Below, in pieces: positions 4,533 through 41,501 of a stretch of 64,000 bases of DNA (the stretch's first letter is position 1; every line of letters begins with the position of its first letter). The stretch spans positions 130,671 to 194,670 of the forward strand of contig CAZVFC010000013.1 of NCBI GenBank assembly GCA_964625855.1. The letters are read 5' to 3'. The notes beneath the pieces were generated by a model. That model was not told where the DNA came from. It ran no database searches and saw only the letters and a list, made by a program, of their open reading frames with translations. A program made the position numbers and the translations under genes. This stretch comes from an uncultured Verrucomicrobiota bacterium (GTDB lineage Bacteria > Verrucomicrobiota > Verrucomicrobiia > Limisphaerales > UBA8199).

Positions 4533-4543
4533 AACCGCCGGGC

Positions 4544-5644: not shown

Positions 5645-5681
5645 GCCGCAGCATGCTTCGGGTATTCACCGGCCAGGCAAT

Positions 5682-23484: not shown

Positions 23485-24033
23485 TCTTCCATGAAGGATG
23501 ATCCCGTTTACACCCCGAGCGACTGCTTCGAAACCTTCCCGTTCCCGGCGGGATGGGAGACAAACGCGGCGCTGGAGGCGTCGGGTCGTGAGTATTACGA
23601 GTTCCGCGCGGCCCTCATGGTTCGCAACGACGAGGGCCTTACCAAGACCTACAACCGCTTCCACGACCCTGAAGAATCCTCGCCGGACATCCTCAAGCTC
23701 CGCGAGTTGCACGCAAAGGTGGATGCCGCCGTCCTCGCCGCCTACGGCTGGACCGACCTGGACACCGCATGCGATTTCATTCTCGACTACGAAGAGGATG
23801 ACGCCGCCGGAGAATCCTCCGCCCGCAAGAAGAAGAAACCCTGGCGCTACCGCTGGTCCGACGAAACCCGCGACGAAGTCCTCGCCCGTCTCTTGAAACT
23901 GAACGCTGAGCGCGCGCAGGGGGAGAAGCTCTCCGGCCAGGCCGACACTAGACGCGCCGTCGGCAGTGCCGTCAGTAGAAGGCTCAACAAGAAAGCTCGC
24001 ATGGCATCCGACAATACCCAGACGCTGCTTTAG
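23485..24033 (+). pseudogene. drmMI: C-terminal remnant of a DISARM class 1 adenine methyltransferase (DrmMI-like), copy 1
   Basis: YTPSDCFETFPFP, GLTKTYNRFHDP, LRELH..VD.AV..AYGW, R.RW.DE.RDEVLARLL.LN.ERA. The catalytic N-terminal part is absent. Confidence 0.75.
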
Positions 24034-24075
24034 GCAATACCTGAATCTAGGAGCGCAAGACGTTAAAAGCAAAAC

Positions 24076-27000
24076 ATGAATATCATTACCGCCAATCCGG
24101 ACGAGTGGCGTACCCCAGGTCGGCGCGTCGCCAGGTATGCAGGGCCGGATTGGCTGGCCGGTATCAGTGAGGCATGCGTTTCGGCGTCGAAAGTCCCAAA
24201 GCGGTATTACACCATTGACTTGAGTAACTTGGATTTCGTCACGCTCTCAGCGTGGGTAGGCATGGTGGCTTTTCTGGAGCGCTTGGCGGCAAATCCGCTA
24301 ACCACAAGTGTTGGGATTGACCTCAAAGGCCACAGCGAGCTTCGGTTGCTGTCACCTTCCGAGTTCATCGACGCCGAAGCACACGCTGGCGAAGGTGAAG
24401 ATCGGCCATCTCGAGGTCCAGAGTTCCTGCAGGCTAGGAGAATGTACCAGATCAGTGGATTTATCGAATCCTTGGGGACTCGGACAGTACTCAACATCCC
24501 TGGGCGCGGCGACCGGATCAGCTACATTTGGCTGGGCGAAAAGGGGGCTCGACTCAAAGCCTTTGCCACCCGGCCCGGTGGAAAACACACGGTCGTCATG
24601 CCGCTCATGCGCATTGAGACAAAGGCACACTGTAAGCAGTTCCTCGAACCAGAAAAGATTCTAAACTGGCGTGAGGCGATGGGGGACAAATTCCGCACCT
24701 CACCGCTCTTCGAGTCGGAGGAGGTTTGGAGAATCTTCTGTCACGAACTTTCTGTGAATATATTCGAGCACGCTGGTTCGGCAGGCTTCCTTGCCGCCCG
24801 GGTTGTCGACAGGGAAGGTCTGACACAGTCCTGGTGTGAGATGTCGTATTCCTCTCAAATCCGCGAGCTATTCCCTCTGATGTCATCCGGCTTTCTGGAA
24901 CTCTGTATAAGCGATGGGGGCCAAGGATTTGCTGCTACATTGGAACGGGCCTACCGCAAGCAAGTGGGCCTGAAGACGAACGATCCTGCCCGGCCACAGG
25001 ACATCTTGCAGTTTGCGTTCGACGAAGTTGGCACATGTAAGAAGGAGAACGAATGCTGGGCTACTGAGCGGCATGCGCTGGGGCGCATTCTGCAAATAGT
25101 CGCGAAGTACGGCGGGGCATTAGCGCTTCGATCTAGTGGCGCGGAAGTCGTTTACGTCAGTCATGGCGGACCATTTGAGCGACGGCCCAATCATCTCGGA
25201 TACCGCGCACAAACCGATCGCTTGTGCTCGAAATTGCAGGGTTCTGACCTGCAAGTTATTTTGCCATTGGTCCCATTTGTCCGTGAAGCGAAGGAAGATT
25301 GGCGCCGGTCTATCCTCATTTCTTCGCTACCAACTGGATTTCATGCCGACCCCACTCACGTACGAGGGCACCTGGTTCCGCTTTTGGAGGTCCTCGATTC
25401 ACAGGATGCTTGTGTAGGACCTGAAGAACTGCGAGCGTTCCGAAAACGATGCGAAGCCCTTGCAACAAGGGTGATTGAGGAACGCCCACCGCTAGAGCCA
25501 ATTATCCTCGACTTCAGCAGCCTTAACTGGACACCTGCTCAGTTCGAGACCCTGCTCCATCTGCTGCAAAACGTGCTTCAGAATCGACCCGTGCTCCTTG
25601 TCGAAATTGAGCACAATCTTGTGCGCGAGGTGGTGGAAATGGAGAAGTCGGCGCCAACACAACTCGCGCCAGAAGTGGCGGACAGAACCCCTAGCGTAAC
25701 CGGTCGCGCTTTCGCGGAGCTTTCCGAAACCAGTTTTCTCGAGACATACCATCGTGTTCACGCAACCGTCCTCGGCCTCGACATCCACGGAAAGCCCCAT
25801 GTGCTCGGCCTGAAGCATCGCTGGTGCGAACCCCTTTTGCTCTCCTTGATCGAAAAACCGCAAACCTTGGAGAGTCTCTGCACGGGACAGCCGCCAGACA
25901 ACGAACGCGCGCTCCGCGCCATTTTCAACAATATGAACCCGTTGTTCTGCGTAGAGGAGGACGGACGCTGGCGTACCGTCTGGGACAAGCACGCGATAGA
26001 CATTGAAGCCCGAAGGGTTATGACGCGGCACTTCGATGTGATCGCTGACCACTGCCAAGCCTGGCGTGGCCGCGTTAACCACTACGCGAAGGCAGCGTCG
26101 GAAATCACAGGAGAGCCGGAGATTCTCAGGGACAAGTACCAGATGACGTTCAACCTGCCCTGGCAGAAGGAGTGGGTTTGTGAGTTTTTCGAAAGTTCAC
26201 GCATTCTCTCGCGCCAACGGTACGCCGACGAGGCCGCACAGAGATTAATCTTCCGTCTGGAGAGAGGGCTGCGGCTCGACGGCAAGACATTGGAAGATGT
26301 GCACGTCCTTGCGTGCGTGACGGCGCCCGCAATCCTGCTTGCGACAGCGCTGCACCGGTGGTGGCCGAACGAAAAGCGACCGGCCATCGCTGACCTGGGA
26401 CACTACCTCATGCTGAACCCAGACGGCCCCCTCCCTGCGATCGCGAGTTTCAGCGGCATCGTCGTCGTCCAGGACGTCTTGGACAGGCGCAACATTTCAA
26501 ATCGGCTGGTTGGGAAACTCCGTGAGCAGAAAAAGGAGGTGCTCTGCGTTCTCAGCTTGGCTCGCCTCGTTGACGCACAGGAGCCTGTCGGCGTGACACC
26601 CATTGATGAAGGCTGGCAACAAACGATACACGACCCGCCAGGCCTCAAAAGCCACGCCCTCGTCAACCTCCTCCGCCCGCAGCGGTGTCCCCCGAGTGAC
26701 CATAACGACCCGCGGGCGCACTGGGTTGAGCCGAGGACGCTTCGCCCATTCCGCTACAGCACACTCCGGCGGGAGGTGCAAGCCAAAGGCACTCCTCGCG
26801 AGCGTCTGCGCCCGTTCTTTACCCCAAAGCAAAGAGGGATTATCTGCGCGGGTCACTACGTTTACGGCGAACGGCACTTCAGGGTAGCGCTCGACATCAA
26901 AGCGGCCCTGGACGGTGAAATAGGCGGCGAACTGGCGGCTTGGCTGGCAGATGTCTGCCAGGGGGTCTCACCCCGATCGGCCGAATGGGAGAGCCACCGA

Positions 27001-29247
27001 GGGAAAAGCCTGCCGGGGGATGTTACCGCAGTCTTGATGCCTCTGCACAGTCAGATCCACTACCTTTGGCCCCGCGTTGAGAGGCTCCTCGCGCAACGCG
27101 GACGCCGGCAGATGATGTGGGTGCTTGACGCCACCCTGTTCCTCGGCCACGGACCGGCCTACCGCCTTCCGCTCCAATTCCTCGAGCAAATCAGACTCGT
27201 GATGCGGTCACTAATCGAGGCAAAGCGTTTTCGAAAGCCAGCAGGCGGCTCGGCAATACGAATTCTCATCCTTGATGATTCCATCTTCTCCGCGCGAACA
27301 ACCGAGACGATCCTGGCCGAGATAGACCGTGCTGTCTCCAAAGCGTGCGAAGCGGCCGGCGCTGCAGGGGAAGGGATTAGCCCAATTCAGTGGATAAGGT
27401 ACGTAGCCGTATTCAACCAAATGAGCCACGCAAAGTATCTCCACTGGAAGAACCTGAACTACGTTGGCTCTATACGCACCGTTCCGTTCGTATTCGACGC
27501 CTACCGATCCATTTTAGGCGGCCCAACATTCGAAGAGGAGAACTGCCCGTGCTGCGCGGATGCAAGACGGCTGGAGAGACTGGTCGCTGCAGCAAAACGT
27601 CACTCGACAGACCTCGCAGGCGCGTGGGCGGAGCAGCAAGGGGAGAGCCTCCAACCCATCGCCATCGACAGCCCGGGGTTTCAAAAGAATCCTCCCGTTG
27701 ACCTCCCACGGCCGATCGACCTTCTTGGTCGCAAACACGCCCCGGTCATGCCTGACCAGTACCAACTCTGGAACGCTGATGAAGCCATTCTGCGCTTCTA
27801 TGAGTTGATGTACATGTCCTATCCACCAAGTGACGTCCTGCGTTCGCTAAGTGCTCCCAATGCATGGGCAGCGTCCGGAGATGGTCCACAAGTCGCAGCC
27901 GAGTACGCGCGGTTCCGCTGGGGCGTTCTTGAGTGGTGTCTGCGAAACTGGCCAAGGCTGGTAGCCGATTCCGCCCGAGATCTCTTCTTTGAATGCGTCC
28001 GCGCGGAAGTAGGGGCGGAAAGCACCATCGCCGAAGCTCTGTTTGAGGGGATGTCCCGCCAACGGAACGACGAAGAGGTAAAGGCTTTCATTGTCGAGGC
28101 GTTGCAGACGCTTGCCCGCTTGGAGACGCAGAAGCCCCGCCACGGGTCCGATTCGTCGCGAAATGCGGGGCCGAGTCTCTTACTTCTTGAAAAGGCACTG
28201 ACGATCGTCCTGCTTAGCATTCCTCACGAAGAATTGGTCAACTTCACGCTGACCGTTAACGGAAATGCCTTGAAGATCGTTGACTTTCTGTCGCGTCTCG
28301 CATCTTCTCGAAAAGAGCGCGGTCTGAGTGTCATCGGTAACCTGCATCTATGCTTCAGCCGACCGCGCCGCGCCGACCCAGCCTGGGCACTCCAGGTGCT
28401 CGCGGAAAATCTGTTTCGAGGTCGCGATCCGGATAATGCCGTCATGTCAAGCCACCGCCTCCTGCCAAAGTTGCTTAGCGACTTAGATCTCGGCACTGCA
28501 ACTTCCGGGGATCGAAGGTTGCTCCTTAGCAGCCTAAACCTCTTCCTTGCCGCACTTGCGGACCTCGCCCGCTTCGCAGCAGGCCGTCTTCTCCCGTTTC
28601 GAGAGATTGCAGCGCTAGGCGGGAGTGTTTTGGATTGGCTGAAAACCCACCCTGAAGACGGTGCGCCACCTAGGTCGGTAACCGAATTGCTCGACGCGCT
28701 CAGCCCGGATCAGGCACCAAACCCGGGAGTCAACTTCTATGGTCCATTCAGTAAAGTCTTTCATGTGGCCGTCGGCGATCTTGAATCCCTCCTTGCCCCC
28801 GCCGTCAATAAAGCCAAGGAGATAAATCCCGACTTCACGTTCAAGTTCCAGCCGAACGACGTCCAGCGGTTCTACGTTTTGACCGTGATAGATCGCCTCT
28901 GCGGCTTTCTGACCAATTGGGCAATTGACCCTGCACAAAAACCATCTCAGCGCCGCTCCGGCCTCAAGAGCCGAATCGAAGTTCATCGTCAACCCATGCC
29001 TCTGGGAACCGACAACCTCCGCTTCCGGATTCTCACGAACTTCGAAGACCTTCAAACTACCCAGGACCGTACAATTCATGGCCCCAACCACGACCGCGAA
29101 GTCCGAACGATGGTTATGTTTGGCGCCATGCTGCCCGATCAGTGGGAAACGCCATCTGAGCCCGAACAGGCCGAACGGTTCACCGCTTGCTACGAGTTCC
29201 AGTTACCAACCGGGTTTACCCCAAAGCAGAAAAACCATGAGCTTTAA
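24076..29247 (+). CDS. 1723-aa multidomain protein: STAS-like, GHKL ATPase, STAS-like, PRTase x2, CxxC, helical region, degenerate GHKL-like end
   Basis: TIDLSNLDFVTLS (STAS), HELSVNIFEHA / ISDGGQGF / GGALALRSSG (GHKL boxes), IILDFSSL, IVVVQDVL and ILILDDSIFSART (PRPP-loop-like), GHYVYGERHF, CPCC. Confidence 0.7.
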   Translation: MNIITANPDEWRTPGRRVARYAGPDWLAGISEACVSASKVPKRYYTIDLSNLDFVTLSAWVGMVAFLERLAANPLTTSVGIDLKGHSELRLLSPSEFIDAEAHAGEGEDRPSRGPEFLQARRMYQISGFIESLGTRTVLNIPGRGDRISYIWLGEKGARLKAFATRPGGKHTVVMPLMRIETKAHCKQFLEPEKILNWREAMGDKFRTSPLFESEEVWRIFCHELSVNIFEHAGSAGFLAARVVDREGLTQSWCEMSYSSQIRELFPLMSSGFLELCISDGGQGFAATLERAYRKQVGLKTNDPARPQDILQFAFDEVGTCKKENECWATERHALGRILQIVAKYGGALALRSSGAEVVYVSHGGPFERRPNHLGYRAQTDRLCSKLQGSDLQVILPLVPFVREAKEDWRRSILISSLPTGFHADPTHVRGHLVPLLEVLDSQDACVGPEELRAFRKRCEALATRVIEERPPLEPIILDFSSLNWTPAQFETLLHLLQNVLQNRPVLLVEIEHNLVREVVEMEKSAPTQLAPEVADRTPSVTGRAFAELSETSFLETYHRVHATVLGLDIHGKPHVLGLKHRWCEPLLLSLIEKPQTLESLCTGQPPDNERALRAIFNNMNPLFCVEEDGRWRTVWDKHAIDIEARRVMTRHFDVIADHCQAWRGRVNHYAKAASEITGEPEILRDKYQMTFNLPWQKEWVCEFFESSRILSRQRYADEAAQRLIFRLERGLRLDGKTLEDVHVLACVTAPAILLATALHRWWPNEKRPAIADLGHYLMLNPDGPLPAIASFSGIVVVQDVLDRRNISNRLVGKLREQKKEVLCVLSLARLVDAQEPVGVTPIDEGWQQTIHDPPGLKSHALVNLLRPQRCPPSDHNDPRAHWVEPRTLRPFRYSTLRREVQAKGTPRERLRPFFTPKQRGIICAGHYVYGERHFRVALDIKAALDGEIGGELAAWLADVCQGVSPRSAEWESHRGKSLPGDVTAVLMPLHSQIHYLWPRVERLLAQRGRRQMMWVLDATLFLGHGPAYRLPLQFLEQIRLVMRSLIEAKRFRKPAGGSAIRILILDDSIFSARTTETILAEIDRAVSKACEAAGAAGEGISPIQWIRYVAVFNQMSHAKYLHWKNLNYVGSIRTVPFVFDAYRSILGGPTFEEENCPCCADARRLERLVAAAKRHSTDLAGAWAEQQGESLQPIAIDSPGFQKNPPVDLPRPIDLLGRKHAPVMPDQYQLWNADEAILRFYELMYMSYPPSDVLRSLSAPNAWAASGDGPQVAAEYARFRWGVLEWCLRNWPRLVADSARDLFFECVRAEVGAESTIAEALFEGMSRQRNDEEVKAFIVEALQTLARLETQKPRHGSDSSRNAGPSLLLLEKALTIVLLSIPHEELVNFTLTVNGNALKIVDFLSRLASSRKERGLSVIGNLHLCFSRPRRADPAWALQVLAENLFRGRDPDNAVMSSHRLLPKLLSDLDLGTATSGDRRLLLSSLNLFLAALADLARFAAGRLLPFREIAALGGSVLDWLKTHPEDGAPPRSVTELLDALSPDQAPNPGVNFYGPFSKVFHVAVGDLESLLAPAVNKAKEINPDFTFKFQPNDVQRFYVLTVIDRLCGFLTNWAIDPAQKPSQRRSGLKSRIEVHRQPMPLGTDNLRFRILTNFEDLQTTQDRTIHGPNHDREVRTMVMFGAMLPDQWETPSEPEQAERFTACYEFQLPTGFTPKQKNHEL

Positions 29248-30856
29248 AATACTATACGTCGAAGACCACGCGCCTTACGCCGAACGCGTCGCCAAGGCGA
29301 TCAGCCCGGACCCGGTGGGTGCGGACAAAGCAGCCGGCTCTCCTTCTGAGTCTCGCCCACTCTCGCTAAAAGTAATCCCCAAGCCCGAGCAGCTACCCGA
29401 AGAGCTGAAGGCCAATTACGACCTCCTCCTTGCAGATCTCCTTTTTCCCGACGAAACTGGAGAGGAAGTGAATAGACTGGACGACATCATTCGCTTCGCC
29501 CAAGAGTGGAGTAAGGCCAACCAGTTCGAACGACCGCTCCCCATAATCGCGTACACCCGGCGTGAAAAGGGGGCCCTCGACTACTGCCTCCAACGGCGAG
29601 ATGCACTTTTCGACATCTGGGATAAGGCCTCGGCATCCCCGCCTTACGCGGCCTGGCGACTGACACGCCTCGCCGTAGAACTCGCTCGCGTGCGGCCCGA
29701 CGCCCTGCTGGAGCGCCTAATTCGCACCATGCCCCCAGGCGCGAGTTGGCACGCCCACGTCCGGGAAATGGCGCTGCGCTACGGGAACGGTTGGACCGAG
29801 GCCGACCAAATTGAACAGGCGGGACGTTGCATTCTCGACATTGCCTCCGAACTGGACGTCTTCAATGCCTGCAAGACCTACTGGGGCGCCATGTCCGACT
29901 GGGAGCCGCTTGGTCGTGCGGTATCCCGGCGGGCACGCGGTCACGCCCGGCACGTCATCAATGTCTTCTGGCTAGGCTACATTCTCCTACACAATCCGAA
30001 CTGTCGGCCATGGTTCGAACAAGCATGGAGGCGACTCCTGACTGACCGCACCGATATGAAGTGCGTGAGAGGAGTGGATCCGATTGAGGCGCTGAGCAAC
30101 TGCTGGTTCTACGGGAGTCTCTTTCACGATTCTGCACACTGCGTTGAGGAGTGGGAGAGCGTTCCCAAGAAGGGCGAGGATGTCCTCACGGTATTCCATG
30201 ATTTTGTTAACGTCAGGACCGGCAAGGGCGCTCTCTCGAAAGCCCTGAAAGAATCCGCCGAAAAGCTTTTTCGCGACCTGGGTGCCGACGTCTCCACGCG
30301 CCTGAAACCCCTTTGGAAGAAGAACTTGGGGGATAGGCATCCAGATCACGGCGTGGTCGCCGGCGCCCACATCATCCGAAAAATCAAATCAAAGGACAAC
30401 CCGCATCAACATTGCTTCGTCCGGGAAGCAGCCCGGGCCATGGCAATTCACAACCTTGTCGGTAAGCTCCCAGCCACGCCCGATGCCTTCCTGTCGTGGG
30501 ACAAACATCCCATTGCATGTATGCTGCTGCTCTGCGATCAAATTCAAACTTGGGACCGCGAACGCGCCGACAAGAAGTTGAGTGAAAAGGACGAGCCGGA
30601 GCGGGCGGAGTTGCTCGATTTTAACGTGACCAAGGTGACTGATCATACCGCGGTCTCTCTGGCAATCGAGTACGTTGCTCCCCGCCACTTGGATCATGCC
30701 CCCGAGGTCTTCAGACGTGTCAAAGATGACCTCGAAGAGGTGATCGAAGAGAAGCCTAAGGCCGCTCTCAGTCGGATCAAGCGTCCTTGGCCTTTCTCTG
30801 TATCTGTCAAATGTTGGCTCAGCGGCAAACCACTGACCCGGAAAATGGATTTCTGA
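29237..30856 (+). CDS. Response-regulator receiver fused to an HD-superfamily phosphohydrolase
   Basis: REC: ILYVED, LLLADLLFP, IIAYT, DIWDK. HD: H..HV..V, LFHD, DHG, AIHN, LLLCDQIQTWDR. ATG 29237 overlaps the upstream gene by 11 nt. Confidence 0.8.
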   Translation: MSFKILYVEDHAPYAERVAKAISPDPVGADKAAGSPSESRPLSLKVIPKPEQLPEELKANYDLLLADLLFPDETGEEVNRLDDIIRFAQEWSKANQFERPLPIIAYTRREKGALDYCLQRRDALFDIWDKASASPPYAAWRLTRLAVELARVRPDALLERLIRTMPPGASWHAHVREMALRYGNGWTEADQIEQAGRCILDIASELDVFNACKTYWGAMSDWEPLGRAVSRRARGHARHVINVFWLGYILLHNPNCRPWFEQAWRRLLTDRTDMKCVRGVDPIEALSNCWFYGSLFHDSAHCVEEWESVPKKGEDVLTVFHDFVNVRTGKGALSKALKESAEKLFRDLGADVSTRLKPLWKKNLGDRHPDHGVVAGAHIIRKIKSKDNPHQHCFVREAARAMAIHNLVGKLPATPDAFLSWDKHPIACMLLLCDQIQTWDRERADKKLSEKDEPERAELLDFNVTKVTDHTAVSLAIEYVAPRHLDHAPEVFRRVKDDLEEVIEEKPKAALSRIKRPWPFSVSVKCWLSGKPLTRKMDF

Positions 30857-30883
30857 CCTGGCCGCCTTCGAATACACACCACC

Positions 30884-31105
30884 ATGACCTCCCCCCAAGT
30901 CCGCTCTGAACTCGTCGAACCCCTCAAGCTCGACCTCGTCGGCCCCGACAACGACCACGCCTTTGCCCACGAGCTGCTTCCGGACGCGCCCTCACGCTGG
31001 TATCTCTCGGGCTTTCTCGTTCCCTCAGAGGCCCCCGCCGACCGGAAGACCGGCGAAACCTCCACCGACGAAAATGACAGCGGCGGCGACACCGGCGGCA
31101 CGGAC
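30884..31105 (+). pseudogene. drmA: 5' fragment of drmA (second, diverged copy)
   Basis: 30908-31105 matches 35417-35614 at 184/198 nt, then breaks. Confidence 0.9.
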
Positions 31106-31114
31106 CACGTCAGG

Positions 31115-31559
31115 CTGATGGTGCGCAACAACGAGGGCCTGACAAAAGCCTACAACCGCTTCCACGACCCTGAGGAAACCTCGCCCGACATTCTCCGCCT
31201 GCGCGCACTCCACGCGGCCATGGACCGCGCCGTCCTCGAAGCCTACGGCTGGTCTGAGCTCATCCCCCAGTGCCAGTGCGAATTCCTGCTCGATTACGAA
31301 GACGAAGAAGATGGCGCCGAGGAAACCGGCCGCCGCCGCAAGAAGCCCTGGCGCTTCCGCTGGCCCGACGAGGTCCGCGACGAAGTCCTCGCCCGCCTCC
31401 TCAAACTCAACGCCGAGCGCGCCGAGCAAGAAGCGCTGGCCGGCCTCACCGCCGCCGCCGGTAAGAAGAGGCTGAATAACCCGCGTGCCAGACCCTGCTC
31501 CGCTGCCCCACCCCCAAGGCGACATCATCCCCGGCCCCCAAACCGACCTCTTCGCCTAA
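31115..31559 (+). pseudogene. drmMI: C-terminal remnant of a DrmMI-like methyltransferase, copy 2
   Basis: About 70% amino-acid identity with copy 1 over ~100 residues. Fused in frame to the drmA fragment. A plausible original end (PQTDLFA*, stop 31557-31559) lies in another frame, implying a frameshift near 31470. Confidence 0.75.
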
Positions 31560-31744
31560 ACTTCGCCCCTGGCAAAATCATGTCTCCGAGTTCCGAAGAA
31601 ACGGCCTCGCTTTGCGTGCTTTGCGTTCTTTCGCGGCCATCTCCCTCCTGGCTTTCGGCTTCGACATCCCGCACCACATCCAGGTTATTTGCGGATTATG
31701 TGCAAAAAGCTATACAACATTGTACTCTGTGACATATTTATAGC

Positions 31745-33376: not shown

Positions 33377-33736
33377 GACCAGAACCGACAAACGGCCCGC
33401 TTACGCGAAGCGATCGCGGCTGGCCTTGTTTACGAGAGCAACCCCAAGCATAGGGCACCGTGGCAAGCCGGTCGGCGCGGCTCCCTCTGCCCAAGAGATA
33501 TTACCATCCAACAGGCCCAGGAATTGCTCAATTCGAGTATTCTCTGTGGCAAGAAACGATACGCGGCTGATAGGCAAGGCCACCCTTACTGCGCTCAGGC
33601 GCACGAACCAACCCGCGGACGCTGGCACGGTTACCCCGTCGCTTGGAAGGAAGTGCCCGTTGAGGTCCAAACAACCTTCGTGCAGAAGGGCCTTGTCTCA
33701 ACCCGTCAAATAAGCGACTTTTGGGAAGGATTTTGA
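33377..33736 (+). pseudogene. 5'-truncated small toxin/RNase-like ORF upstream of the ImmA gene
   Basis: Frame without a start codon reads LVYESNPKHRAPWQAGRRGSLCP...KRYA...WHGYPVAWKEVP...GF*. The ORF track shows only its last 70 aa. The stop lies 3 nt before the next start. Confidence 0.6.
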
Positions 33737-33739
33737 TAA

Positions 33740-35311
33740 GTGCATCACTACGGAACATATGGGATGGGTGACCGGGAGAAGTTCTTCTTCCAGTTGGCCT
33801 TCGAGCCATCCGCAGACCCCGCTTTTGTCGCGTCCGAAGAAGATGCCCTTTCGTGGGGAAGCTTCCAGATGTGGGTGGGAGGCCGGAACCTGTGCCGCTA
33901 TGCTGTTGGGACGGAAGAAAGCCAATCCGTGTACTGGCATCTCTTCCCGTTCATGGAGTGGTTGGTGGAGCACTGGGACTACCTCTTCCACGAGCAACGG
34001 CCTCCCATCCGGAACGCAGCTCAGTTCGCCTGGCAATCGTTGGCCGAAACGAACTCACCCTTGGCGCTGGAGCACGGAGGCGATTGGGACTTTGCCGCCG
34101 CGGCTAGGAATGCCGAGTGGTCCGCCCGCCACTCCATCACGACATGCCGCGAAGGCGGATTGTTCCCCGGAGTCGTATTCCGGCGGTTCTGGAGCGATGT
34201 CGAAGTCTCGTGGGGAGACAAACCGCCGCCGGGGGCGCCGGCTGGCTTCCGATTCGTTGAAAGCGGCGGAGCCGCCCGCTTGCCTGTTCCCCTCGTCGCC
34301 GAACCCATCCACAACGTCCTCGCGGTAGCCGTTAAGGCATTGCGGCGCAGCCTGCCCGAAAACAAGAGACTTGCCCTCCTGGAAAAGCAGCTCGGCGATT
34401 TGCCTGCCCCTGAGCACCAACCGCGCCGGTTGGCAATCCTGGCGGGCCTCGGGGAGAATCCGAAACAATGGACCAAGCGATGGCTCTCGCTCCAGCAGGC
34501 GCTCGCCAAGGAGTTCGCTGACACCAAGGATACACTGGCGCATTTGTTCGGCGGCGATGCTAGAAATGCGCTCGTGGTTCAGGGCAGTTGCGAGGGAGCA
34601 CTCATGTTCGGAGCGGCGGCCCCCACGCTCCGCGAGCGAGACGTCTTCAATCTGGCCAGCCGTCTCGTCCGGCACTCAACCAGCGCGGCCGCGCAAGACA
34701 AGCTGGCCCCCCACGCCACGTATCGCCCACCCAATCCGCGCGCCTCTTTGCCCTGGCAAGAAGGTTACCAACTCGCGCAAGAATGGGCGAGATCGAGCCA
34801 CCTTGATAACCCCACCCAGCCGGTGGATGTCGAAGCCCATCTCAACGCTTTTGGCGTGACGGTAGATGAATTGGCGATCGAGGACGAGCAGATCGGTGGC
34901 GTAGCCATCGCCCGTGAAAAGCGAAATCCCCTAATTCTTTGGAACAGCCGTAACCCGCGGAATAAGTATCCATCCGGGCGGCGGTTCTCCTTGGCTCACG
35001 AACTGTGCCACCTCCTCTACGACCGGCGGGCCGGCGCAGAGTTGGCACTGATCTCAGGCCCCTGGGCTCCCATAGAGCTGGAGAAACGTGCCAACGCCTT
35101 CGCTGCCATGCTCCTGATGCCTGACGCTCTGGTGGAAAGGGCGTTTGCTGGCACAAGCGGCGGAGCATCCCGCCCGTCGTTTGAAGATCTCCTTGCAGCG
35201 GCCAAGAAACTCCAAGTCAGTGCGAACGCGCTCGCGCACCATCTCTCCAATCGTGGTTGGATTTCCCCAGAGATGAGAGACCTGTTGCTGGAGCAAGTGA
35301 TCGATCGGTAA
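33740..35311 (+). CDS. ImmA/IrrE-family metallopeptidase with a large N-terminal domain
   Basis: RRFSLAHELCHLL (HExxH) and E.RANAFAAMLLMP, with an HTH-like C-terminus. Confidence 0.88.
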   Translation: MHHYGTYGMGDREKFFFQLAFEPSADPAFVASEEDALSWGSFQMWVGGRNLCRYAVGTEESQSVYWHLFPFMEWLVEHWDYLFHEQRPPIRNAAQFAWQSLAETNSPLALEHGGDWDFAAAARNAEWSARHSITTCREGGLFPGVVFRRFWSDVEVSWGDKPPPGAPAGFRFVESGGAARLPVPLVAEPIHNVLAVAVKALRRSLPENKRLALLEKQLGDLPAPEHQPRRLAILAGLGENPKQWTKRWLSLQQALAKEFADTKDTLAHLFGGDARNALVVQGSCEGALMFGAAAPTLRERDVFNLASRLVRHSTSAAAQDKLAPHATYRPPNPRASLPWQEGYQLAQEWARSSHLDNPTQPVDVEAHLNAFGVTVDELAIEDEQIGGVAIAREKRNPLILWNSRNPRNKYPSGRRFSLAHELCHLLYDRRAGAELALISGPWAPIELEKRANAFAAMLLMPDALVERAFAGTSGGASRPSFEDLLAAAKKLQVSANALAHHLSNRGWISPEMRDLLLEQVIDR

Positions 35312-35389
35312 TCTTCATTCTTCATTCGCTGCCTGCAAATTTAACTCGCAGGACGGTCAGGTTCTGGTCAAGCTCCCCAAGGAGAAACC

Positions 35390-38300
35390 ATGAGCACTTC
35401 ATCCGCGATCCGCAGTGAACTGGTCGAAGCCCTCAAACTCGACCTCGTAGGCCCCGACAACGACCACGCCTTTGCCCACGAGTTGCTTCCGGACGCGCCC
35501 TCACGCTGGTATCTCTCGGGCTTCCTAGTTCCCTCAGAGGCCCCCGCCGACCAGAAGACCGACGAAACCTCCTCCGAAGAAATTGACAGCGGCGGGGACA
35601 CCGGCGGCACCGACGACGACACCGAGCCCGACCGCGCCGCCGCGCGCAAAAGCATCCTGCCCTCCTCGATGGGCCTCAGCGTCCTGGTCCCTCCGGGCAT
35701 CGAAACCCTGAATGCTATCGTCGCCTGGGGCGATTACGTGTACGAAGGTGCAGACCAGGAACCCGCCGTCTCCGCCCCAACCTTGGAAAGCCCGGACGAA
35801 CTGCACGACAAACCAGCCCCCTCCGGCGCCCCTCAAGACCCCAACGATCCAACAATCCAACAATCCAAGACTCCACCCCAGCCGAGAGGCTACCGCCGCG
35901 ACCCGAGGGAAGAGAGCGTCTCCATCGCTCTGCCCGCACCTGGCGGCAAGCCGAACCAATTTCTCGTGCCAAACAGCGGCGGCCTCACCCTGAGCGTAAC
36001 CGTCCGCGCCGTGCCTGCCGCCGGTCACGCTTCCACCCGTTTGCCTGCCGGCGCTCGCTCCGTCTCCGTTTTCCTCGTCAACCATCGCCCACCCAACAAG
36101 GAACGCGGCTATCGCGCCTTTGCCTTCCAAACCTGCCTTAAGCTCATCGCTCCGCAGCCCTTCACACCCCGCCCTGACCTGCGCGGCACCCTCTCGGGCG
36201 CGGCTACCGAAGAATGGGACGAGCAAGTTGCCGATCTCCAGTTCCGCGACGTTTTCGAATACGCCGTTGGCCACGGTGTTTCCGCCACTGCCGAGCACGA
36301 GCCGGGCGGCGCTTGCCGCGTTGTGAAGACCACTTGGATTCCGACCGCCGAAGTCGAGAAGGTTTCCCCGGCTCCAATCCCTGACGTGGAGTTGCGAATC
36401 GAAGCGCTCGGCGCGCTCGCCGACCACGCCGAGGCACAAGCCAAGCTTTCCCCGCTCGTCGCTCACTACCGAGAATGGTTGGACGACCAACAGAAGAAAG
36501 CGGCGGCGGCAAACCTCGAAGCCCGCCACGCTCAGACCGCTCAAGACCTCATCCTCTCCGCCCGGCACACCGCCGACCGCATCCAGGCCGGCATCGCTGC
36601 CCTCGCGGACCCGCAGTTGCTCGACGCCTTCCGCATCGCCAACCGCGCTATGGCCGCCTCTGCCCGGCAACGCGAGCTCGTCCGCCACCAGGGCGACGCC
36701 AGCAAAGTGCAGCCGCCCACCTGGTATCCCTTCCAGCTTGCTTACATCCTGATGAATCTCCGGGGCATCTTCGACCCCACGCACCTGGACCGCGAGACGG
36801 TTGACCTCCTCTTCTTCCCGACCGGCGGCGGCAAAACCGAGGCGTACCTCGGCCTCGCTGCCTTCGCTATGGTGCTGCGCCGCCTCCGGCACCCCGGCAT
36901 CCGCTCCGCCGGCGTTTGCGTCTTGATGCGCTACACTCTCCGCCTGCTCACCTTGGACCAGTTGAGCCGCGCTGCTGCCGTTATCTGTGCGCTCGAATTG
37001 GAGCGCGAGAAGGATACGGAAAAGAAACTGGGCGAATGGCCGTTCGAAATCGGACTCTGGGTCGGCTCCGCCGCCACCCCCAACCGCATGGGCCGGCGTG
37101 GCGACACCAGCTCCGCGGCGAAGTACACCGCCTACACCAAGACGATGCACTTCCAGAAGAATTCCAACAGCAACCCCGCGCCTATCCCCATTGAGAATTG
37201 TCCCTGGTGCGGCCACAAGTTTGACCGCAACTCCTTCCGCCTCGTTCCTAGCGTCAACGCGCCCACCGACCTGCGGGTTGTCTGCGTCAACCCTAAATGC
37301 ACCTTCTCCGGCGACCGATTTCTGCCGGTCCTCGGAGTTGACGAACCTATCTACCGCCGCCTGCCCGCCTTCCTCATCGCCACCGTTGACAAATTCGCCG
37401 CCCTGCCATGGACCGGCGAAACGGGCGCCCTTTTCGGTTTGGTTGACCGCTACGACCAGGAAGGTTTTTACGGCCCCTGCGATCAGAAGCACGGCAAAGC
37501 TCTCGGCGGGCCCTTGCCGCCCCCCGAACTTATTATCCAAGACGAGTTGCACCTGATCTCCGGTCCCCTCGGAACCATCGCCGGAGTTTACGAAACCGCC
37601 ATTGACATGCTCGCCACCAGGACCGGCGGCGAAATCACGCTCCGACCCAAGATCATCGCCAGCACCGCCACCGTCCGGCGGGCCGAGGCTCAGATCCACG
37701 CCCTGTTCGAGCGTAATCATGTCGCCATCTTCCCGCCGCCAGGCCACGACCGGCGAGATTCCTTCTTCGCCCTGACCGAGCCTTCGGCCACCACCGCCGC
37801 CCGCCTCTACGTCGGCGTCGCCGCCCAGGGACGCAGCCTCAAAGTCGTCTTGCTCCGCGCCGGGCTGGCCCTGCTCAGCGCCGGCCAGACTGCCTACCAG
37901 CGCGAAGGCGGCAAGGCCAACAAGCAGAACCCCACCGACCCTTACATGACGCTCTTGGGCTATTTCAACAGCCTCCGCGAGTTGGGCGGCAGCCGCCGGA
38001 TCGTCGAAGATGAAGTGCGAACCCGCGTCCAGCAGTACTCCCGCCGCAAACGCCGCGACGCTGCCGACAATCTCTTTTCCGCTCGCAACATCACCTACGA
38101 AGTTTTGGAACTCACGTCCCGCGTCTCCACCGGCGATGTCGCCACCGCCAAGCGCCGCCTGGCCCTGCCGTTCCACGAGGACGAACGCGTGGACGTCGCC
38201 CTGGCCACCAACATGATCTCCGTCGGCTTGGACATAATCCGGCTTGGCCTCATGGTCGTGCTGGGCCAGCCAAAAACCAGCGCCGAATACATCCAGGCCA

Positions 38301-38914
38301 CCAGCCGCGTTGGCCGCGACCCCAATCGCCCCGGCTTGGTCGTAACGTTGCTCAACGTCCACAAGCCCCGCGACCGCTCCCACTATGAGCGGTTCGAGAT
38401 GTACCACGCCACCTTCTACCGCGCCATCGAAGCCACCAGCGTCACCCCCTTCTCGCCCCGCGCCCTCGATCGCGCCTTGCCCGCGGCCCTTGTCGCCCTC
38501 TGCCGCCAGGGGATGCCCGCTTTGACCCCGGCGCTTGGCGCAACCGGGATTCTCACCTTCCGGGCGATGCTCGACCGCTTCGCCACCCGCTTTGCGGACC
38601 GCGCCCGCAACCACGACCCGAGCCTCACCCCCGCTGCGGCGCAGGAGTTGGCCGACAAAGTCCTCCACCGCTGCGGCCGCTTGCTGGACGACTGGCGCAA
38701 CATCGCCGACGAGTTCCAACAAACCAACACCAAGCTTCAGTATCAGCAGGAAGTCGGCGCCGCTCAGCGCCTCCTCTACCCGTTCCTCCATCCCGATTTG
38801 CCGAACCTTCCCCCCGTGCGCCGGAAGTTCCGCGCCAATCGCTCTATGCGCGACGTGGAACCAAGCGTGGATCTCGGTGTCAAGAATTTGAACGATTGGA
38901 CGCAAAGACCATGA
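35390..38914 (+). CDS. drmA: DISARM SF2 helicase DrmA
   Basis: FFPTGGGKTEAY, MRYTLRLLT.DQ, QDELHLISGPLG, ASTAT, ATNMISVGLDI, YIQATSRVGR. Precedes DUF1998 and PLD genes. Confidence 0.92.
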   Translation: MSTSSAIRSELVEALKLDLVGPDNDHAFAHELLPDAPSRWYLSGFLVPSEAPADQKTDETSSEEIDSGGDTGGTDDDTEPDRAAARKSILPSSMGLSVLVPPGIETLNAIVAWGDYVYEGADQEPAVSAPTLESPDELHDKPAPSGAPQDPNDPTIQQSKTPPQPRGYRRDPREESVSIALPAPGGKPNQFLVPNSGGLTLSVTVRAVPAAGHASTRLPAGARSVSVFLVNHRPPNKERGYRAFAFQTCLKLIAPQPFTPRPDLRGTLSGAATEEWDEQVADLQFRDVFEYAVGHGVSATAEHEPGGACRVVKTTWIPTAEVEKVSPAPIPDVELRIEALGALADHAEAQAKLSPLVAHYREWLDDQQKKAAAANLEARHAQTAQDLILSARHTADRIQAGIAALADPQLLDAFRIANRAMAASARQRELVRHQGDASKVQPPTWYPFQLAYILMNLRGIFDPTHLDRETVDLLFFPTGGGKTEAYLGLAAFAMVLRRLRHPGIRSAGVCVLMRYTLRLLTLDQLSRAAAVICALELEREKDTEKKLGEWPFEIGLWVGSAATPNRMGRRGDTSSAAKYTAYTKTMHFQKNSNSNPAPIPIENCPWCGHKFDRNSFRLVPSVNAPTDLRVVCVNPKCTFSGDRFLPVLGVDEPIYRRLPAFLIATVDKFAALPWTGETGALFGLVDRYDQEGFYGPCDQKHGKALGGPLPPPELIIQDELHLISGPLGTIAGVYETAIDMLATRTGGEITLRPKIIASTATVRRAEAQIHALFERNHVAIFPPPGHDRRDSFFALTEPSATTAARLYVGVAAQGRSLKVVLLRAGLALLSAGQTAYQREGGKANKQNPTDPYMTLLGYFNSLRELGGSRRIVEDEVRTRVQQYSRRKRRDAADNLFSARNITYEVLELTSRVSTGDVATAKRRLALPFHEDERVDVALATNMISVGLDIIRLGLMVVLGQPKTSAEYIQATSRVGRDPNRPGLVVTLLNVHKPRDRSHYERFEMYHATFYRAIEATSVTPFSPRALDRALPAALVALCRQGMPALTPALGATGILTFRAMLDRFATRFADRARNHDPSLTPAAAQELADKVLHRCGRLLDDWRNIADEFQQTNTKLQYQQEVGAAQRLLYPFLHPDLPNLPPVRRKFRANRSMRDVEPSVDLGVKNLNDWTQRP
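35841..35872 (+). repeat. Octamer array inside drmA
   Basis: CCAACGAT CCAACAAT CCAACAAT CCAAGACT. Confidence 0.7.
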
Positions 38915-40707
38915 CGACCCCCCAACTTCGCTCCAGCCAGGTCATCACCACCTTCGGCCCCGGCGCAATGGTGGACCTGCCCGAAGCGTCAGTCCTCGTG
39001 GCTGGCCTCGACCACTGGCAGTACGATAATACCCAGCCCATCCCGATCATCCAGGAGCAGCGCCTCGTCGAAAAACTCAAGCCCATCGTCGGCATCCCCA
39101 ACCTGACGCTCCGCGCGCCGCCCCCCGCCGTAGATCGGGACTACGGCTTCTGCCCCAACATAACCGCTTGGCGCTTTCCGAAGTGGTTCATTGTTCAGGA
39201 AACCCAAGTCACAAGTCAGGGCTTCCGCCGCCGTCGCCTCGTCCATCTGAACAGCCTCGACGGCGGCAAATACCGCGACCCCTCCGGCAAAAAACAATCC
39301 GTCGTCCCCGTGCGCTTCGTCCGCGCCTGCAAGAAGGGCCACATTGGCGACATTGATTGGCGGCCTTTCGCCCACGGCACCGCCCCGGCCTGCCCGCGCG
39401 ACCTGTGGATGGAAGAACGCGGCACCACCGGCGACCTCGACGAGATTTGGGTTGTCTGCGAGTGTGGCAAAGATCGGCCGATGGCCCAGGCCGCCCGCAT
39501 GGAGCTTCGCGCGCTTGGCTCCTGCAACGGCAACCGCCCTTGGCTCGGCCCCGGAACCAAGCAGGGTTGCGGCGAACCGAACCGCCTCCTGATTCGCAGC
39601 GCCAGCAACGCCTACTTCCCGCAGCTCATGTCCGTCATTTCCATCCCCGATACCCAAACGGCCCTGGACGAAGTCGTCCAGTCCGCCTGGGACGCCGGGT
39701 TGTCTATCGTGGATTCGCCGGAAAAACTCGCGCTCGTCCGCCAAATCCCGGCCCTCGCGGTCAAACTGCAAGGCATCGAGGACGCCGCCATACTCGCCGC
39801 CATAGCCCGCGTCCGGCAGGGCGGCAGCGCCGCCGAGCGGCCAGTTAAGGAAGTCGAATTCGAAGCCCTCTCCGAGGCCAAGGACGAGTTGGGCTCCGAC
39901 GTTCCCGATGGCTACTTCTTCGCCCGCTCGCTGCCCAAAGCCCAATGGAGTGCCCCCTGGATGTCGGCCATTGAACGGGTTGTGCTCGTGCATCGCCTCC
40001 GGGAAGTTGTCGCCCAGGTCGGGTTCACCCGTTTTGAAGCCGCCGGCCCGGATATTCAAGGCGACCTCTCCCTCGACGTGGAACGCGCACCGCTCGCCCT
40101 CGACAGCTCCTGGCTGCCGGCGGTTGAAAATCGCGGCGAAGGAATCTTTCTCCAGCTCAACCCCGAGAGCGTTGCCGCGTGGCTCCAGAAGCCCGCCGTC
40201 ACCCAGCGCGGCAGCCAACTTGCCGAGGGCTTCGCCCGCTGGAATGCCGAACATGAGGGAAGCACGCGCCAGTTCCCTGGCTTGCCCTATTTCATGCTCC
40301 ATTCACTCGCCCACCTCCTCCTGACCGCCATCTCGCTCGAATGTGGCTACCCCGCTTCCTCTCTCCGCGAACGCATCTTCGCGGCTCCCGGTGCCTATGG
40401 TCTGCTTATCTACACCGGCTCGTCTGACGCCGAAGGAACGCTCGGCGGCTTGGTCGTGGCCGGACGCGACATCCGCCGCCACCTGCGCCGCGCCCTCGAG
40501 TGTGGCGAGCTTTGCTCCAACGACCCGGTCTGTGCTCATCACGCCCCGGCCCGCCACGATGGACAGCAGCTTCTAGGCAGCGCCTGCCACGGCTGCCTCC
40601 TCATCGCCGAAACCTCCTGCGAGCAGCGCAACGACTTCCTCGACCGCGCCCTTGTCGTGCCCACTGTCGAAGCCATCGGCGCCGAGTTCTTTTCCCCGAT
40701 CATCTGA
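38911..40707 (+). CDS. drmB: DISARM DUF1998 protein DrmB
   Basis: R.SQ.ITTFGPGA.VDLP, HSLAHLL, GY.ASSL.ERI, EGTLGGLV, CS.DP.C...ACHGC....ETSCE..N..LDR. ATGA overlap with drmA. Confidence 0.92.
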   Translation: MTTPQLRSSQVITTFGPGAMVDLPEASVLVAGLDHWQYDNTQPIPIIQEQRLVEKLKPIVGIPNLTLRAPPPAVDRDYGFCPNITAWRFPKWFIVQETQVTSQGFRRRRLVHLNSLDGGKYRDPSGKKQSVVPVRFVRACKKGHIGDIDWRPFAHGTAPACPRDLWMEERGTTGDLDEIWVVCECGKDRPMAQAARMELRALGSCNGNRPWLGPGTKQGCGEPNRLLIRSASNAYFPQLMSVISIPDTQTALDEVVQSAWDAGLSIVDSPEKLALVRQIPALAVKLQGIEDAAILAAIARVRQGGSAAERPVKEVEFEALSEAKDELGSDVPDGYFFARSLPKAQWSAPWMSAIERVVLVHRLREVVAQVGFTRFEAAGPDIQGDLSLDVERAPLALDSSWLPAVENRGEGIFLQLNPESVAAWLQKPAVTQRGSQLAEGFARWNAEHEGSTRQFPGLPYFMLHSLAHLLLTAISLECGYPASSLRERIFAAPGAYGLLIYTGSSDAEGTLGGLVVAGRDIRRHLRRALECGELCSNDPVCAHHAPARHDGQQLLGSACHGCLLIAETSCEQRNDFLDRALVVPTVEAIGAEFFSPII

Positions 40708-41501
40708 TGCTCAACGCGCTCCAAAACCTGCCCCCGGCCGCCCTGCGCTCGCTCGCCGCCTCGCTCCGCGAAGGCCCCCTCGCCCTCGGCCTTTCTCGCC
40801 ACGCGCTCGCCCAGGCCATCGGGCCGCAGGCCCAGGCCGTCCGTGAATCCCTCGACGGTCTCGTCCAGCAAGGCATGGCCCCAAAACACATCGCAATCCT
40901 GGCCGAGGCCATCGCCCAATGTTCCGAGCGCGCCGCCGCGCCGCAAAGCCTGTTCGAGCTTGTCCTCTCCGGCCCGGAAGTCCCCGGCGTACCGACTGCC
41001 GACACCGCCGCAACCATTCAGACCCTGATTGAAAACGCCGAAACCGAAATTGTCCTGGTCGGCTATGCAGTCCACAACGGCAAGAAGCTGTTCAAAAGAT
41101 TGGCGGAAAGGCTCGACGCTGCCCCGACACTCCGCGTCGTCTTCTGTCTCGACATCGCCCGGAAGCAAACGGACACGTCACTCGCCGGCGAGATTATCCG
41201 TCGCTTTTGTCACGACTTCGCCACCAAACACTGGCCCGGCAAGCGCCTCCCCGACCTCTACCACGACCCCCGCGCCCTATCCGAAACAGCCCAGGCACGG
41301 GCCAGCCTGCACGCCAAGTGCGTGATCGTTGACCGCCGCATCGCCGTAATCACTTCCGCCAACTTCACCGAAGCCGCTCACACCAAGAACATCGAAGCCG
41401 GCGTCCTCATCCGCTACGAACCGTTCGTGACTCGCCTAAGCGCCTACTTCGAAGCTTTGCGTAATTCCGGCCAGTTGACCCCGTGCAGCCTGGAAGTTTA
41501 A
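40707..41501 (+). CDS. drmC: DISARM phospholipase-D-family nuclease DrmC
   Basis: LV.SGP, LHAKC.IVD (HKD), TSANFT, N.EAG. Start overlaps the drmB stop. Confidence 0.92.
   Translation: MLNALQNLPPAALRSLAASLREGPLALGLSRHALAQAIGPQAQAVRESLDGLVQQGMAPKHIAILAEAIAQCSERAAAPQSLFELVLSGPEVPGVPTADTAATIQTLIENAETEIVLVGYAVHNGKKLFKRLAERLDAAPTLRVVFCLDIARKQTDTSLAGEIIRRFCHDFATKHWPGKRLPDLYHDPRALSETAQARASLHAKCVIVDRRIAVITSANFTEAAHTKNIEAGVLIRYEPFVTRLSAYFEALRNSGQLTPCSLEV

Follow-up and report, generated by a model that had tools for sequence, protein, structure and literature searches.

Restriction-linked open reading frames (ORFs) inside the hsd loci of type I restriction-modification systems have been named rloA/rloB, PrrC and RloC. 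BrxU, a GmrSD protein, lies inside the BREX (bacteriophage exclusion) system of pEFER (PMC8565348), and a backup or complementary role has been proposed for defence genes inserted in modification-dependent systems. Payne, Hughes, Fineran and Jackson (2024) reported that BREX, DISARM (defence island system that is associated with restriction-modification), Hma and type I restriction-modification systems frequently hold embedded genes, 96.7% of which are oriented as the host system and which were the basis of the PADLOC HEC and PDC candidates (10.1101/2024.01.29.577857). Variable DISARM content is therefore not new. In the accessible portion of that paper's text, cargo exchange is not discussed, and the words "recombination" and "hotspot" occur 0 times each (10.1101/2024.01.29.577857). 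Here we analyse a DISARM locus in a 64,000-nucleotide (64-kb) stretch of DNA from an uncultured Verrucomicrobiota bacterium (contig CAZVFC010000013.1, positions 130,671 to 194,670), hereafter the window. Three different accessory gene sets lie in this one locus, parted by leftover ends of the locus's own genes. On balance, we favour reading the drmMI-drmA interval of this class 1 DISARM locus as the record of at least two and probably three imprecise exchanges of cargo, one after another.

An earlier note on this DNA had set out the order of genes and gene fragments, and every element that it listed was found on the plus strand using the ORF list, Pfam and PADLOC profiles. All DISARM and cargo features described below are on this strand, and all cargo lies between drmMI remnants and drmA, so it is embedded in the host system. 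The locus begins with a 3' fragment of the methyltransferase gene drmMI (copy 1, 23437–24033; ORF 23473–24033, 186 aa; PADLOC DrmMI E 1e-68, profile positions 822–997 of 1015). This fragment corresponds to approximately residues 1120–1306 of a DrmMI of 1290–1490 aa; the catalytic part of drmMI and the upstream drmD are missing. The first cargo, a pair of genes encoding 1723 and 539 aa, is followed by a relic of drmA that comprises codons 1–76, including the start codon (30884–31112), and is 92% identical to 35393–35621. A second drmMI 3' fragment directly follows (copy 2, 31114–31732; PADLOC DrmMI E 3e-41, profile positions 863–990; tblastn match 31112–31489). Next come the second cargo, of AbiL type, the third cargo, consisting of a small gene and a gene for an M78 protein, and then drmABC. 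Only stumps are present of AbiLii, of the small partner gene and of both methyltransferases, while drmABC, AbiLi, the M78 protein and the 1723/539 pair are intact; of the three cargo sets, only cargo 1 is fully intact.

The closest DISARM relative of the window is a locus from a Verrucomicrobiota metagenome-assembled genome (MAG), L001. Its drmA homology ends at 31112 and its methyltransferase homology starts at 31114, from L001 position 4898 and with 88.6% nucleotide identity over copy 2. At this joint the drmA start codon is kept and the two pieces are in frame, which predicts from the sequence a 282-aa chimeric ORF (30884–31732) with its DrmMI match at residues 76–196; an exact-protein look-up with this ORF gave no record. 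The left end of methyltransferase homology in copy 1 falls at ~23437–23485, and the third joint, within AbiLii, at ~33371–33377, with blastn homology to the L001 AbiLii ending at 33377. Junctions had been placed at ~23484, ~31105 and ~33376, and all three were found and refined by these comparisons. The joints have at most a few bases of microhomology, and neither a conserved repeat nor an att-like sequence was detected there.

The duplicated gene ends are diverged alleles rather than exact duplicates, as the earlier note had held. The two copies of the drmA-5' repeat (30900–31112 and 35409–35621, spaced 4509 nt apart) are 92% identical, with 18 mismatches in 213 nt, about half of them synonymous. 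Over 198 nt, a previous count of 14 differences with 8 synonymous becomes 15 differences with about half synonymous, and the divergence itself is borne out. The two methyltransferase fragments are 73–78% identical in DNA and 68% in protein, close to the ~70% protein identity given before. Comparison with other loci showed that both drmA 5' copies are of the type found in L001 and L129 (the relic is 92.6% identical to L129 and 91.3% to L001, the intact copy 94–96%), as is methyltransferase copy 2 (87–89% nucleotide identity). Methyltransferase copy 1 is closest to L089 and L002 (80–82%) and only 75% identical to L001 and L129. As the allele types differ, copy 1 must be of other origin than copy 2 and both drmA ends. 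The proposal that pieces of at least two DISARM loci were stitched together is thus supported by two diverged alleles of both flanking gene ends and by different methyltransferase types. The suggestion of probably three donors fares less evenly: the small-gene and M78 pair does occupy the slot of another DISARM locus (L077), and the third donor is only inferred, cargo 3 having no relic of its own.

Look-ups with the genes neighbouring the fusion ORF led to two contigs from an independent assembly of the SRR12133403 raw reads; they are 100% identical to the window, and each was reported in two samples. One (L082) covers 23051–30970 and the other (L081) 30985–35479. Each of the three novel junctions (the left methyltransferase joint, the drmA-5'/drmMI-3' joint and the AbiLii joint) is internal to one of these contigs and is thereby confirmed. 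The exact 32-nt junction pattern had no match in Joint Genome Institute (JGI) metagenome contigs. Both raw-read contigs break off within the drmA-5' repeat, at identical stretches of 33 and 40 nt that give rise to shared 31-mers. The same breaks bear on an alternative that we consider unlikely, namely mis-phasing or population heterogeneity at the repeat. One molecule would then read drmMI stump, cargo 1 and full drmABC, and a second unit (the drmA-5'/drmMI-3' joint, AbiLi, truncated AbiLii, truncated small gene and M78 gene) would form a 4509-bp circle or tandem array; alternatively, RecA excision between the direct repeats would leave both forms coexisting. That the raw-read contigs stop exactly at the shared 31-mers (30970 and 35479), with the next contig starting at 30985, and that the identical stretches of 33 and 40 nt recur at a distance of 4509 nt, speaks for this alternative. 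However, any read longer than ~80 nt bridges the 15–18 differences between the repeat copies, the window comes from a 195-kb contig, and the 4.5-kb unit has no replication or recombinase gene. Furthermore, the 31112/31114 and 33377 joints lie within one independent contig found in two samples, so the unusual junctions exist under either phasing.

The right part of the locus contains three intact core genes. drmA (35390–38914, 1174 aa; PADLOC DrmA E 1e-277) is full length compared with its relatives (1169 aa in L001), drmB (38896–40707, 603 aa; PADLOC DrmB E 1e-76) matches Pfam MZB (DUF1998), and drmC (40707–41501; PADLOC DrmC E 9e-71; Pfam PLDc_2) encodes a phospholipase D (PLD)-type nuclease of ~264 aa counted from the ATG at 40707. 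The mechanically called drmC ORF is 40500–41501, with the DrmC profile match over its residues 72–327. The drmABC block is 92.9% identical in nucleotides to L001. A crossover point within the block was not placeable, the sliding identity to L001 being uniform at 88–97% except in a hypervariable linker (35690–35960). The core genes drmABC (35000–41000) share a strong negative GC skew of -0.14 to -0.22 that is not common to the cargo; cargo and flanks have a skew of about 0 to -0.12.

The remainder of the system is incomplete. Searches of the 64-kb window by tblastn with the full-length DrmMI of L001, L002 and seven other loci found no intact drmMI and matched only the two stumps, of ~180 and ~120 residues compared with 1290–1490 aa in complete DrmMI. 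Likewise, the ~1075–1140-aa ORFs found upstream of drmMI in eight loci had no tblastn match to indicate drmD in the window, and a copy elsewhere in the genome is possible. PADLOC requires DrmA, DrmB, DrmC, DrmD and DrmMI for class 1 DISARM (PMC9252829). With drmA, drmB and drmC present, and a complete drmMI and an upstream drmD lacking in the window, the locus is not a complete class 1 DISARM by that definition. The "drmMI-drmA interval" described previously therefore exists, with a left border that is a methyltransferase stump and not an intact drmMI. In a Serratia class 1 DISARM, loss of the methylases is not autoimmune, and drmA and drmB give most of the activity (10.1101/2021.12.28.474362). 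Thus, a drmABC remnant would be viable in principle.

We surveyed DrmA loci together with 10-kb flanks, 80 of them taken from GTDB genomes and 80 from metagenomes. In 100 of the 160 loci, which were taken as informative, the conserved C-terminal block of DrmMI precedes drmA on the same strand and contig. The distance from the drmMI end to the drmA start is 3–8516 nt, with a median of 1868 nt, where gaps are measured from the end of the conserved methyltransferase block and not from the stop codon, so that occupied gaps are overestimated by up to ~0.5 kb. The slot is empty (<300 nt) in 39 loci and measures 0.3–1 kb in 4, 1–3 kb in 29, 3–6 kb in 21 and >6 kb in 7. It is therefore occupied in 61 of the 100 loci, over 0.3–8.5 kb, mostly by defence-type or toxin-antitoxin genes. 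Cargo ORFs of 100 aa or longer number 106 in the first set, and 79 of them are co-directional with drmA. Cargo families across both sets include GmrSD (HEC-06/SspE-like), Mrr, AAA_21 with RloB, HepT with a nucleotidyltransferase (MNT), Macro/DarG-like proteins, ABC-3C components, XisH/XisI, HNH, YhcG/PDC-S02, LmuB-like ATPases and CapP-like M78 proteins. These data agree with the suggestion that the interval is a variable hotspot: its cargo is diverse, and with 39 of 100 loci empty it is not usually empty.

The flanks of the slot are the same in all relatives of the locus: the last ~150 conserved DrmMI residues on one side and the first ~100 DrmA residues on the other. Among 11 relatives, nucleotides 1–330 of drmA are conserved (60–70% mean pairwise identity) and nucleotides 331–600 are hypervariable (37–42%).

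To look for similar scars elsewhere, the N-terminus of DrmA and the C-terminal block of DrmMI from each locus were used as queries against that same locus. At least eight other loci from independent lineages, or at least nine including the window, contain robust relics of the drmA 5' end or the drmMI 3' end; two marginal matches (L003, E 1e-3; L016, E 2e-4) were left out of the count. Relics of the drmA 5' end lie upstream of an intact drmA, in most cases with cargo between the two. In L077, the start codon and 29 identical nt, an 83-nt deletion and ~50 more similar nt precede an inverted small-gene/M78 pair; in L108, a relic of 54% identity over 74 aa (E 2e-21) precedes a helix-turn-helix (HTH) and CapP-like pair; and in L117, a relic of 76% identity over 101 aa (E 1e-45) precedes a PD-T7-3-like gene. 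Several copies are present in L166, the best two being 93% identical over 97 aa and 77% over 103 aa. A relic of ~50 residues in L096 (27–173) abuts the intact drmA (166–3657) with no cargo between them, and may be the footprint left after cargo loss. The drmA relics end at approximately residues 27–115, within the conserved 5' block and ahead of the hypervariable stretch. Relics of the drmMI 3' end were found in L090 (70% identity over 77 aa, E 2e-27), with an HNH gene on one side and PDC-M26A-like genes on the other, in L144 (E 8e-11), and in a cyanobacterial MAG, L067, where 1172 nt are repeated at 78% identity (5821–6972 and 13569–14739). In L067 the duplicate is placed after drmA and before a frameshifted drmB, so relics of the methyltransferase end also occur outside the drmMI-drmA slot. 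Among the surveyed loci, the window alone combines the two types of relic in a single joint, and no other locus has three layers of cargo.

The metagenomic locus L166 has the most heavily scarred slot among those surveyed (463–4269). At least three relics (463–753, 1621–1765 and 3080–3352) lie upstream of its intact drmA (3917–7687), with minus-strand ORFs between them.

This pattern of recurrent gene-end scars suggests one-sided recombination anchored in conserved gene ends. A very improbable alternative is that the cargos are mobile elements with site-specific insertion at the 5' end of drmA, or at the 3' end of drmMI, and that they carry a replacement gene end. Several loci do have an intact drmA after the cargo and a displaced drmA-5' relic, which is the classic footprint of insertion and restoration. 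Against this, the points at which relics end range from ~residue 27 to 115, the joints yielded no conserved repeat and no att-like sequence, and neither the window cargo nor the relic-bearing slots examined contain an integrase, transposase or recombinase.

The scars also help to weigh the collapse of two complete class 1 loci arranged head to tail, which we regard as improbable. Here, a deletion that began at codon 76 of drmA in the first locus and ended at codon ~1172 of drmMI in the second would create the joint, a second deletion would remove drmD and drmMI of the first locus, and no cassette would be exchanged. One deletion does account for the drmA-5'/drmMI-3' joint, the two drmA 5' copies share the L001/L129 type, and the locus is visibly decaying, with no drmD and two methyltransferase stumps. 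However, the AbiLii/small-gene joint is left unexplained, as are the relics of L077, L108, L117 and L166, which run straight into cargo without a methyltransferase piece, and those of L090 and L144, in which one cargo set lies on each side of a methyltransferase relic. In addition, none of the 160 surveyed loci (0/160) has two complete tandem DISARM loci within the 10-kb flanks.

Homology-facilitated illegitimate recombination, described in naturally transformable bacteria, joins foreign DNA through a one-sided homologous anchor and an illegitimate joint. For the successive exchanges that we favour, one conserved block, in most cases drmA, would let donor DISARM DNA pair with the resident locus, and the other end of the fragment would be joined illegitimately. 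As anchoring is one-sided, the resident cargo would not be cleanly replaced, and new cargo would be added beside it together with a relic of a donor or recipient gene end. This route is favoured because the joints have at most a few bases of microhomology and the cargo carries no recombinase; Pfam and PADLOC scans identified no recombinase gene among the window cargo. The resemblance to homology-facilitated illegitimate recombination lies in one segment end being homologous to the recipient drmA, in the other joint having little or no homology, and in the outcome, foreign DNA beside a partial duplication; it differs in that the mechanism here is read from scars alone.

The starting state may have been an L001/L129-type locus with drmD, drmMI, possible further genes, AbiLi, AbiLii and drmABC in that order. 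In this DrmA clade, drmA usually has AbiLi-AbiLii directly upstream (L001, L002, L087, L093 and L129). A block consisting of an L089/L002-type drmMI 3' end, the 1723/539 pair and drmA codons 1–76 would have been joined to codon ~1172 of the L001/L129-type drmMI. The 5'-truncated small gene and the M78 gene would have entered between abiLii and drmA, with loss of the 3' half of abiLii. drmD and ~80% of the leftmost drmMI would have been lost by a separate deletion or by truncated arrival. The joining of cargo 1, the insertion of cargo 3 and the loss of drmD and drmMI are listed here in no implied order. The earlier idea that cargos accumulate in this way holds for DNA and only partly for function, AbiLii and the small partner gene having been truncated by the joints.

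Several points weigh against successive exchange as the origin of the stacked locus. Only the window's own assembly links cargo 1 through the relic to methyltransferase copy 2. Which way and in what sequence the events ran is a reconstruction, as is the microhomology at the joints. The same drmA-5'/drmMI-3' joint would arise, with no uptake of foreign DNA, from a deletion between two DISARM loci in tandem. Cargo 3 has no relic, and its origin from a DISARM locus is circumstantial. Occupied gaps in the survey are overestimated, with no effect on the empty class.

A bolder extension of the exchange model is conceivable, and we offer it tentatively as rather less than probable. The drmMI 3' and drmA 5' ends could serve as portable homology arms, with units of drmMI-3', cargo and drmA-5' moving between DISARM loci, perhaps via circles or tandem units that arise when duplicated arms recombine, the 4509-bp unit of this locus being an example. 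DISARM would then be an integrase-free cassette platform with its history written in its scars, and the 1723/539 layer a new two-component-type defence system.

The intact first cargo consists of gene A (24076–29247, 1723 aa) and gene B (29237–30856, 539 aa). Pfam, PADLOC and PDB sequence searches with the pair were uninformative, and folds came only from structure prediction. These predict a phosphoribosyltransferase (PRTase) fold in the middle of gene A with a helical C-terminus, and in gene B an N-terminal receiver (CheY-like) fold followed by a helical HD-like domain. Among 5.8 billion proteins, gene A has 48 homologues, all ~1700 aa, and gene B 118, always of ~535 aa and paired with gene A; no precomputed Pfam domain is recorded on any of them. 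All six other contexts examined (L083, L084, L086, L167, L168 and L169) have the two genes side by side, as a strictly conserved operon, and the pair is absent from all 160 other DISARM loci surveyed. Its neighbours elsewhere are a truncated hsdM (L084, L167), AbiEi/AbiEii (L086), integrases and MmeI-type enzymes (L167, L168) and a patatin (L169). In L084 and L167, the truncated fragments that immediately precede the pair were compared with the 3' end of DrmMI and proved to be 5' fragments of hsdM instead. Their position echoes the drmMI stump in the window and suggests repeated landing in loci of the restriction-modification type. As the pair recurs beside restriction-modification remnants, AbiE and integrases, it is a good candidate for a defence system.

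For residues 640–1240 of gene A, the AlphaFold model (predicted local distance difference test, pLDDT, 81) gave Foldseek matches to HP1257 and to orotate, adenine and hypoxanthine PRTases at E 1e-5 to 1e-3. Together with the motifs VVVQDVLD and ILILDDSI..ART, this predicts a PRTase fold with an acidic phosphoribosyl pyrophosphate (PRPP)-loop motif. Residues 1–639 have no Pfam match. The invariant columns E224/N228/H232 and D280-x-G282-x-G284 resemble N and G1 boxes, and these motifs suggest that the N-terminus is a GHKL-type ATPase. The model of gene B (pLDDT 89) has receiver domains as its top Foldseek matches, with a template-modelling (TM) score of ~0.65 on the target at an E-value of only ~1e-2, consistent with a predicted receiver domain. 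Invariant H239, H297, D298, H405 and D434 (H..HD..H..D in the helical domain) suggest that the helical domain is HD-phosphohydrolase-like. As a working model built on these predicted structures, cargo 1 may be a two-component-like sensor/effector pair acting on nucleotides.

Cargo 2 has an intact AbiLi, an RloA-type AAA_21 ATPase of 437 aa (31745–33058; Pfam AAA_21 E 1e-31; PADLOC AbiLi E 2e-85) that is 56% identical to its L001 homologue. Its partner AbiLii, or RloB (33048–33377), which had been called a 5' half, is indeed present for only the first ~110 of 246 residues, and its ORF continues into unrelated sequence to 33713. Within this ORF (33048–33713), the PADLOC RloB match covers only residues 36–110, the Pfam RloB match is below cut-off (profile positions 1–71 of 195), and approximately residues 32–112 match the 246-aa L001 AbiLii, with 72% identity over L001 residues 35–~115 and no similarity thereafter. 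Therefore, the AbiL system in the window has its AAA_21 ATPase and lacks a complete RloB/AbiLii partner. An LmuB-like (PDC-M68B-like) ATPase of 680 aa occupies part of the slots of L001 (5771–7819), L002 (5671–7710) and L027 (6488–8533), with 76–79% identity among these loci, and lies upstream of AbiLi-AbiLii in L001 and L002. In the window it is absent or deleted, as only 290 nt separate methyltransferase copy 2 from AbiLi.

Cargo 3 begins with a 5'-truncated small partner gene (33392–33736), detected in a local tblastn search with the 126-aa L077 protein (residues 19–126, 29% identity, E 3e-6). It lacks ~18 residues and the start codon, the first in-frame start being a TTG at 33524. The gene had been described as the 3' half of a toxin; the 5' truncation is borne out, and ~85% of the gene is present and not half. 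No HTH and no Pfam match were detected in its product. The following gene, previously listed as ImmA, encodes a full-length and intact M78 protein of 523 aa and is not a fragment (33740–35311; Pfam Peptidase_M78 E 2e-12; PADLOC capP E 8e-18). An unknown 340-residue N-terminal domain precedes a C-terminal M78 (ImmA/IrrE/CapP-like) metallopeptidase, and the family has 292 cluster representatives at E <= 1e-30, of which those listed align over approximately residues 9–520. In L077, as in the window, the small gene precedes the M78 gene. Cargo 3 could be a toxin-antitoxin-like or regulatory module. CapH/CapP, an HTH repressor with an M78 peptidase, are regulators found with CBASS (cyclic oligonucleotide-based antiphage signalling system) and some DISARM loci (10.1101/2022.04.27.489752). 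As in CapH/CapP, an M78 metallopeptidase gene adjoins DISARM genes here, and CapP-like M78 genes lie directly upstream of drmA in L108 and L144. In contrast to CapH/CapP, the 340 residues at the N-terminus of the 523-aa protein form a different domain, no HTH is detectable in the small partner, and the pair is on the same strand within the slot, whereas reported CapH/CapP pairs are divergent and upstream of drmD. With an M78 domain, no detected HTH partner and a co-directional arrangement, cargo 3 does not qualify as a CapH/CapP-type regulator pair.

The DISARM region is part of a ~19-kb island between coaX and trpA. On the left are nadC, birA and coaX, which ends at 22754, and on the right trpA (~42740–43558) and then manC. 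The G+C content of the window is ~63%; cargo 1 has 0.55–0.61, below the 0.63–0.67 of the flanks. Scans for tRNA and Rfam features found none in the 64-kb window, which leaves the island without a tRNA-type integration site. The island's left edge carries a 39-nt relic of trpA (23140–23178), which encodes QLAAQRGLESGTT and is 92% identical to 42950–42988 inside trpA. No further trpA sequence and no displaced trpA 5' end were found at this edge, and there is no integrase within the island. The 39-nt stretch may be the remnant of an old rearrangement at the insertion point of the island. A classical integrative element was considered and is unsupported, as the 39-nt relic comes without a displaced trpA 5' end or an integrase. 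The independent contig L082 starts at 23051, in the noncoding stretch between coaX and the methyltransferase stump and near the trpA relic; this start may mark a strain-variable island boundary. It should also be noted that a tandem array of a 7-nt unit (AGTCCAC / AGTCCGC, ~18 copies) lies at 42425–42550, just upstream of trpA and within the N-terminal extension of a mechanically called ORF (42410–43558), and that the genes of the window are of Verrucomicrobiota type, one of them with a weak match to the 'Verru_Chthon cassette protein D' family.

Embedded genes serve to predict new defence systems, and the scars described here offer a testable mechanism for their entry and exit, namely recombination anchored in conserved gene ends of the host system. 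In practice, relics may be used as annotation markers that delimit cargo units and their order of arrival. They also indicate that acquisition can be destructive, since neighbouring cassettes and the methyltransferase are truncated, and this bears on the annotation of "complete" systems. The intact 1723/539 pair is a rare, unannotated candidate defence system predicted from its context.

Compared with known systems, the cargo most closely follows the pattern of embedded genes: accessory defence genes lie between core genes, mostly in the same orientation, and many of the surveyed cargo families are HEC or PDC candidates of the 2024 study or known systems (AbiL, GmrSD/HEC-06, PDC-S02 and PDC-M26A). 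What differs is that the slot is pinned to drmMI-drmA, that gene-end scars occur in at least nine loci, and that one locus holds three cargo layers. New here, it seems, are gene-end scars that recur across lineages and point to how embedded cargo turns over. The rlo genes and BrxU offer a similar parallel, with AAA_21, RloB and GmrSD-type genes inserted between genes of a modification-dependent system; in this case the host system is DISARM, and AbiLii is truncated in the window.

Detocs is a two-component-like defence system. Like Detocs, cargo 1 would pair a large protein bearing putative histidine-kinase-like ATPase motifs with a predicted receiver protein bearing a putative nucleotide-hydrolysing effector. 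Unlike Detocs, it has a predicted PRTase fold in the large protein, an HD-like effector and no histidine phosphotransfer (Hpt) buffer protein, and it shares no sequence similarity with the PADLOC Detocs models. At the level of the whole slot, the arrangement resembles defence hotspots and integron cassette arrays, in which unrelated defence cassettes are replaced or accumulate at a fixed address between conserved flanks. However, the flanks of the DISARM slot are the system's own gene ends, there is no integrase and there are no attC-like sites, and accumulation in the DISARM slot damages the neighbouring cassettes.

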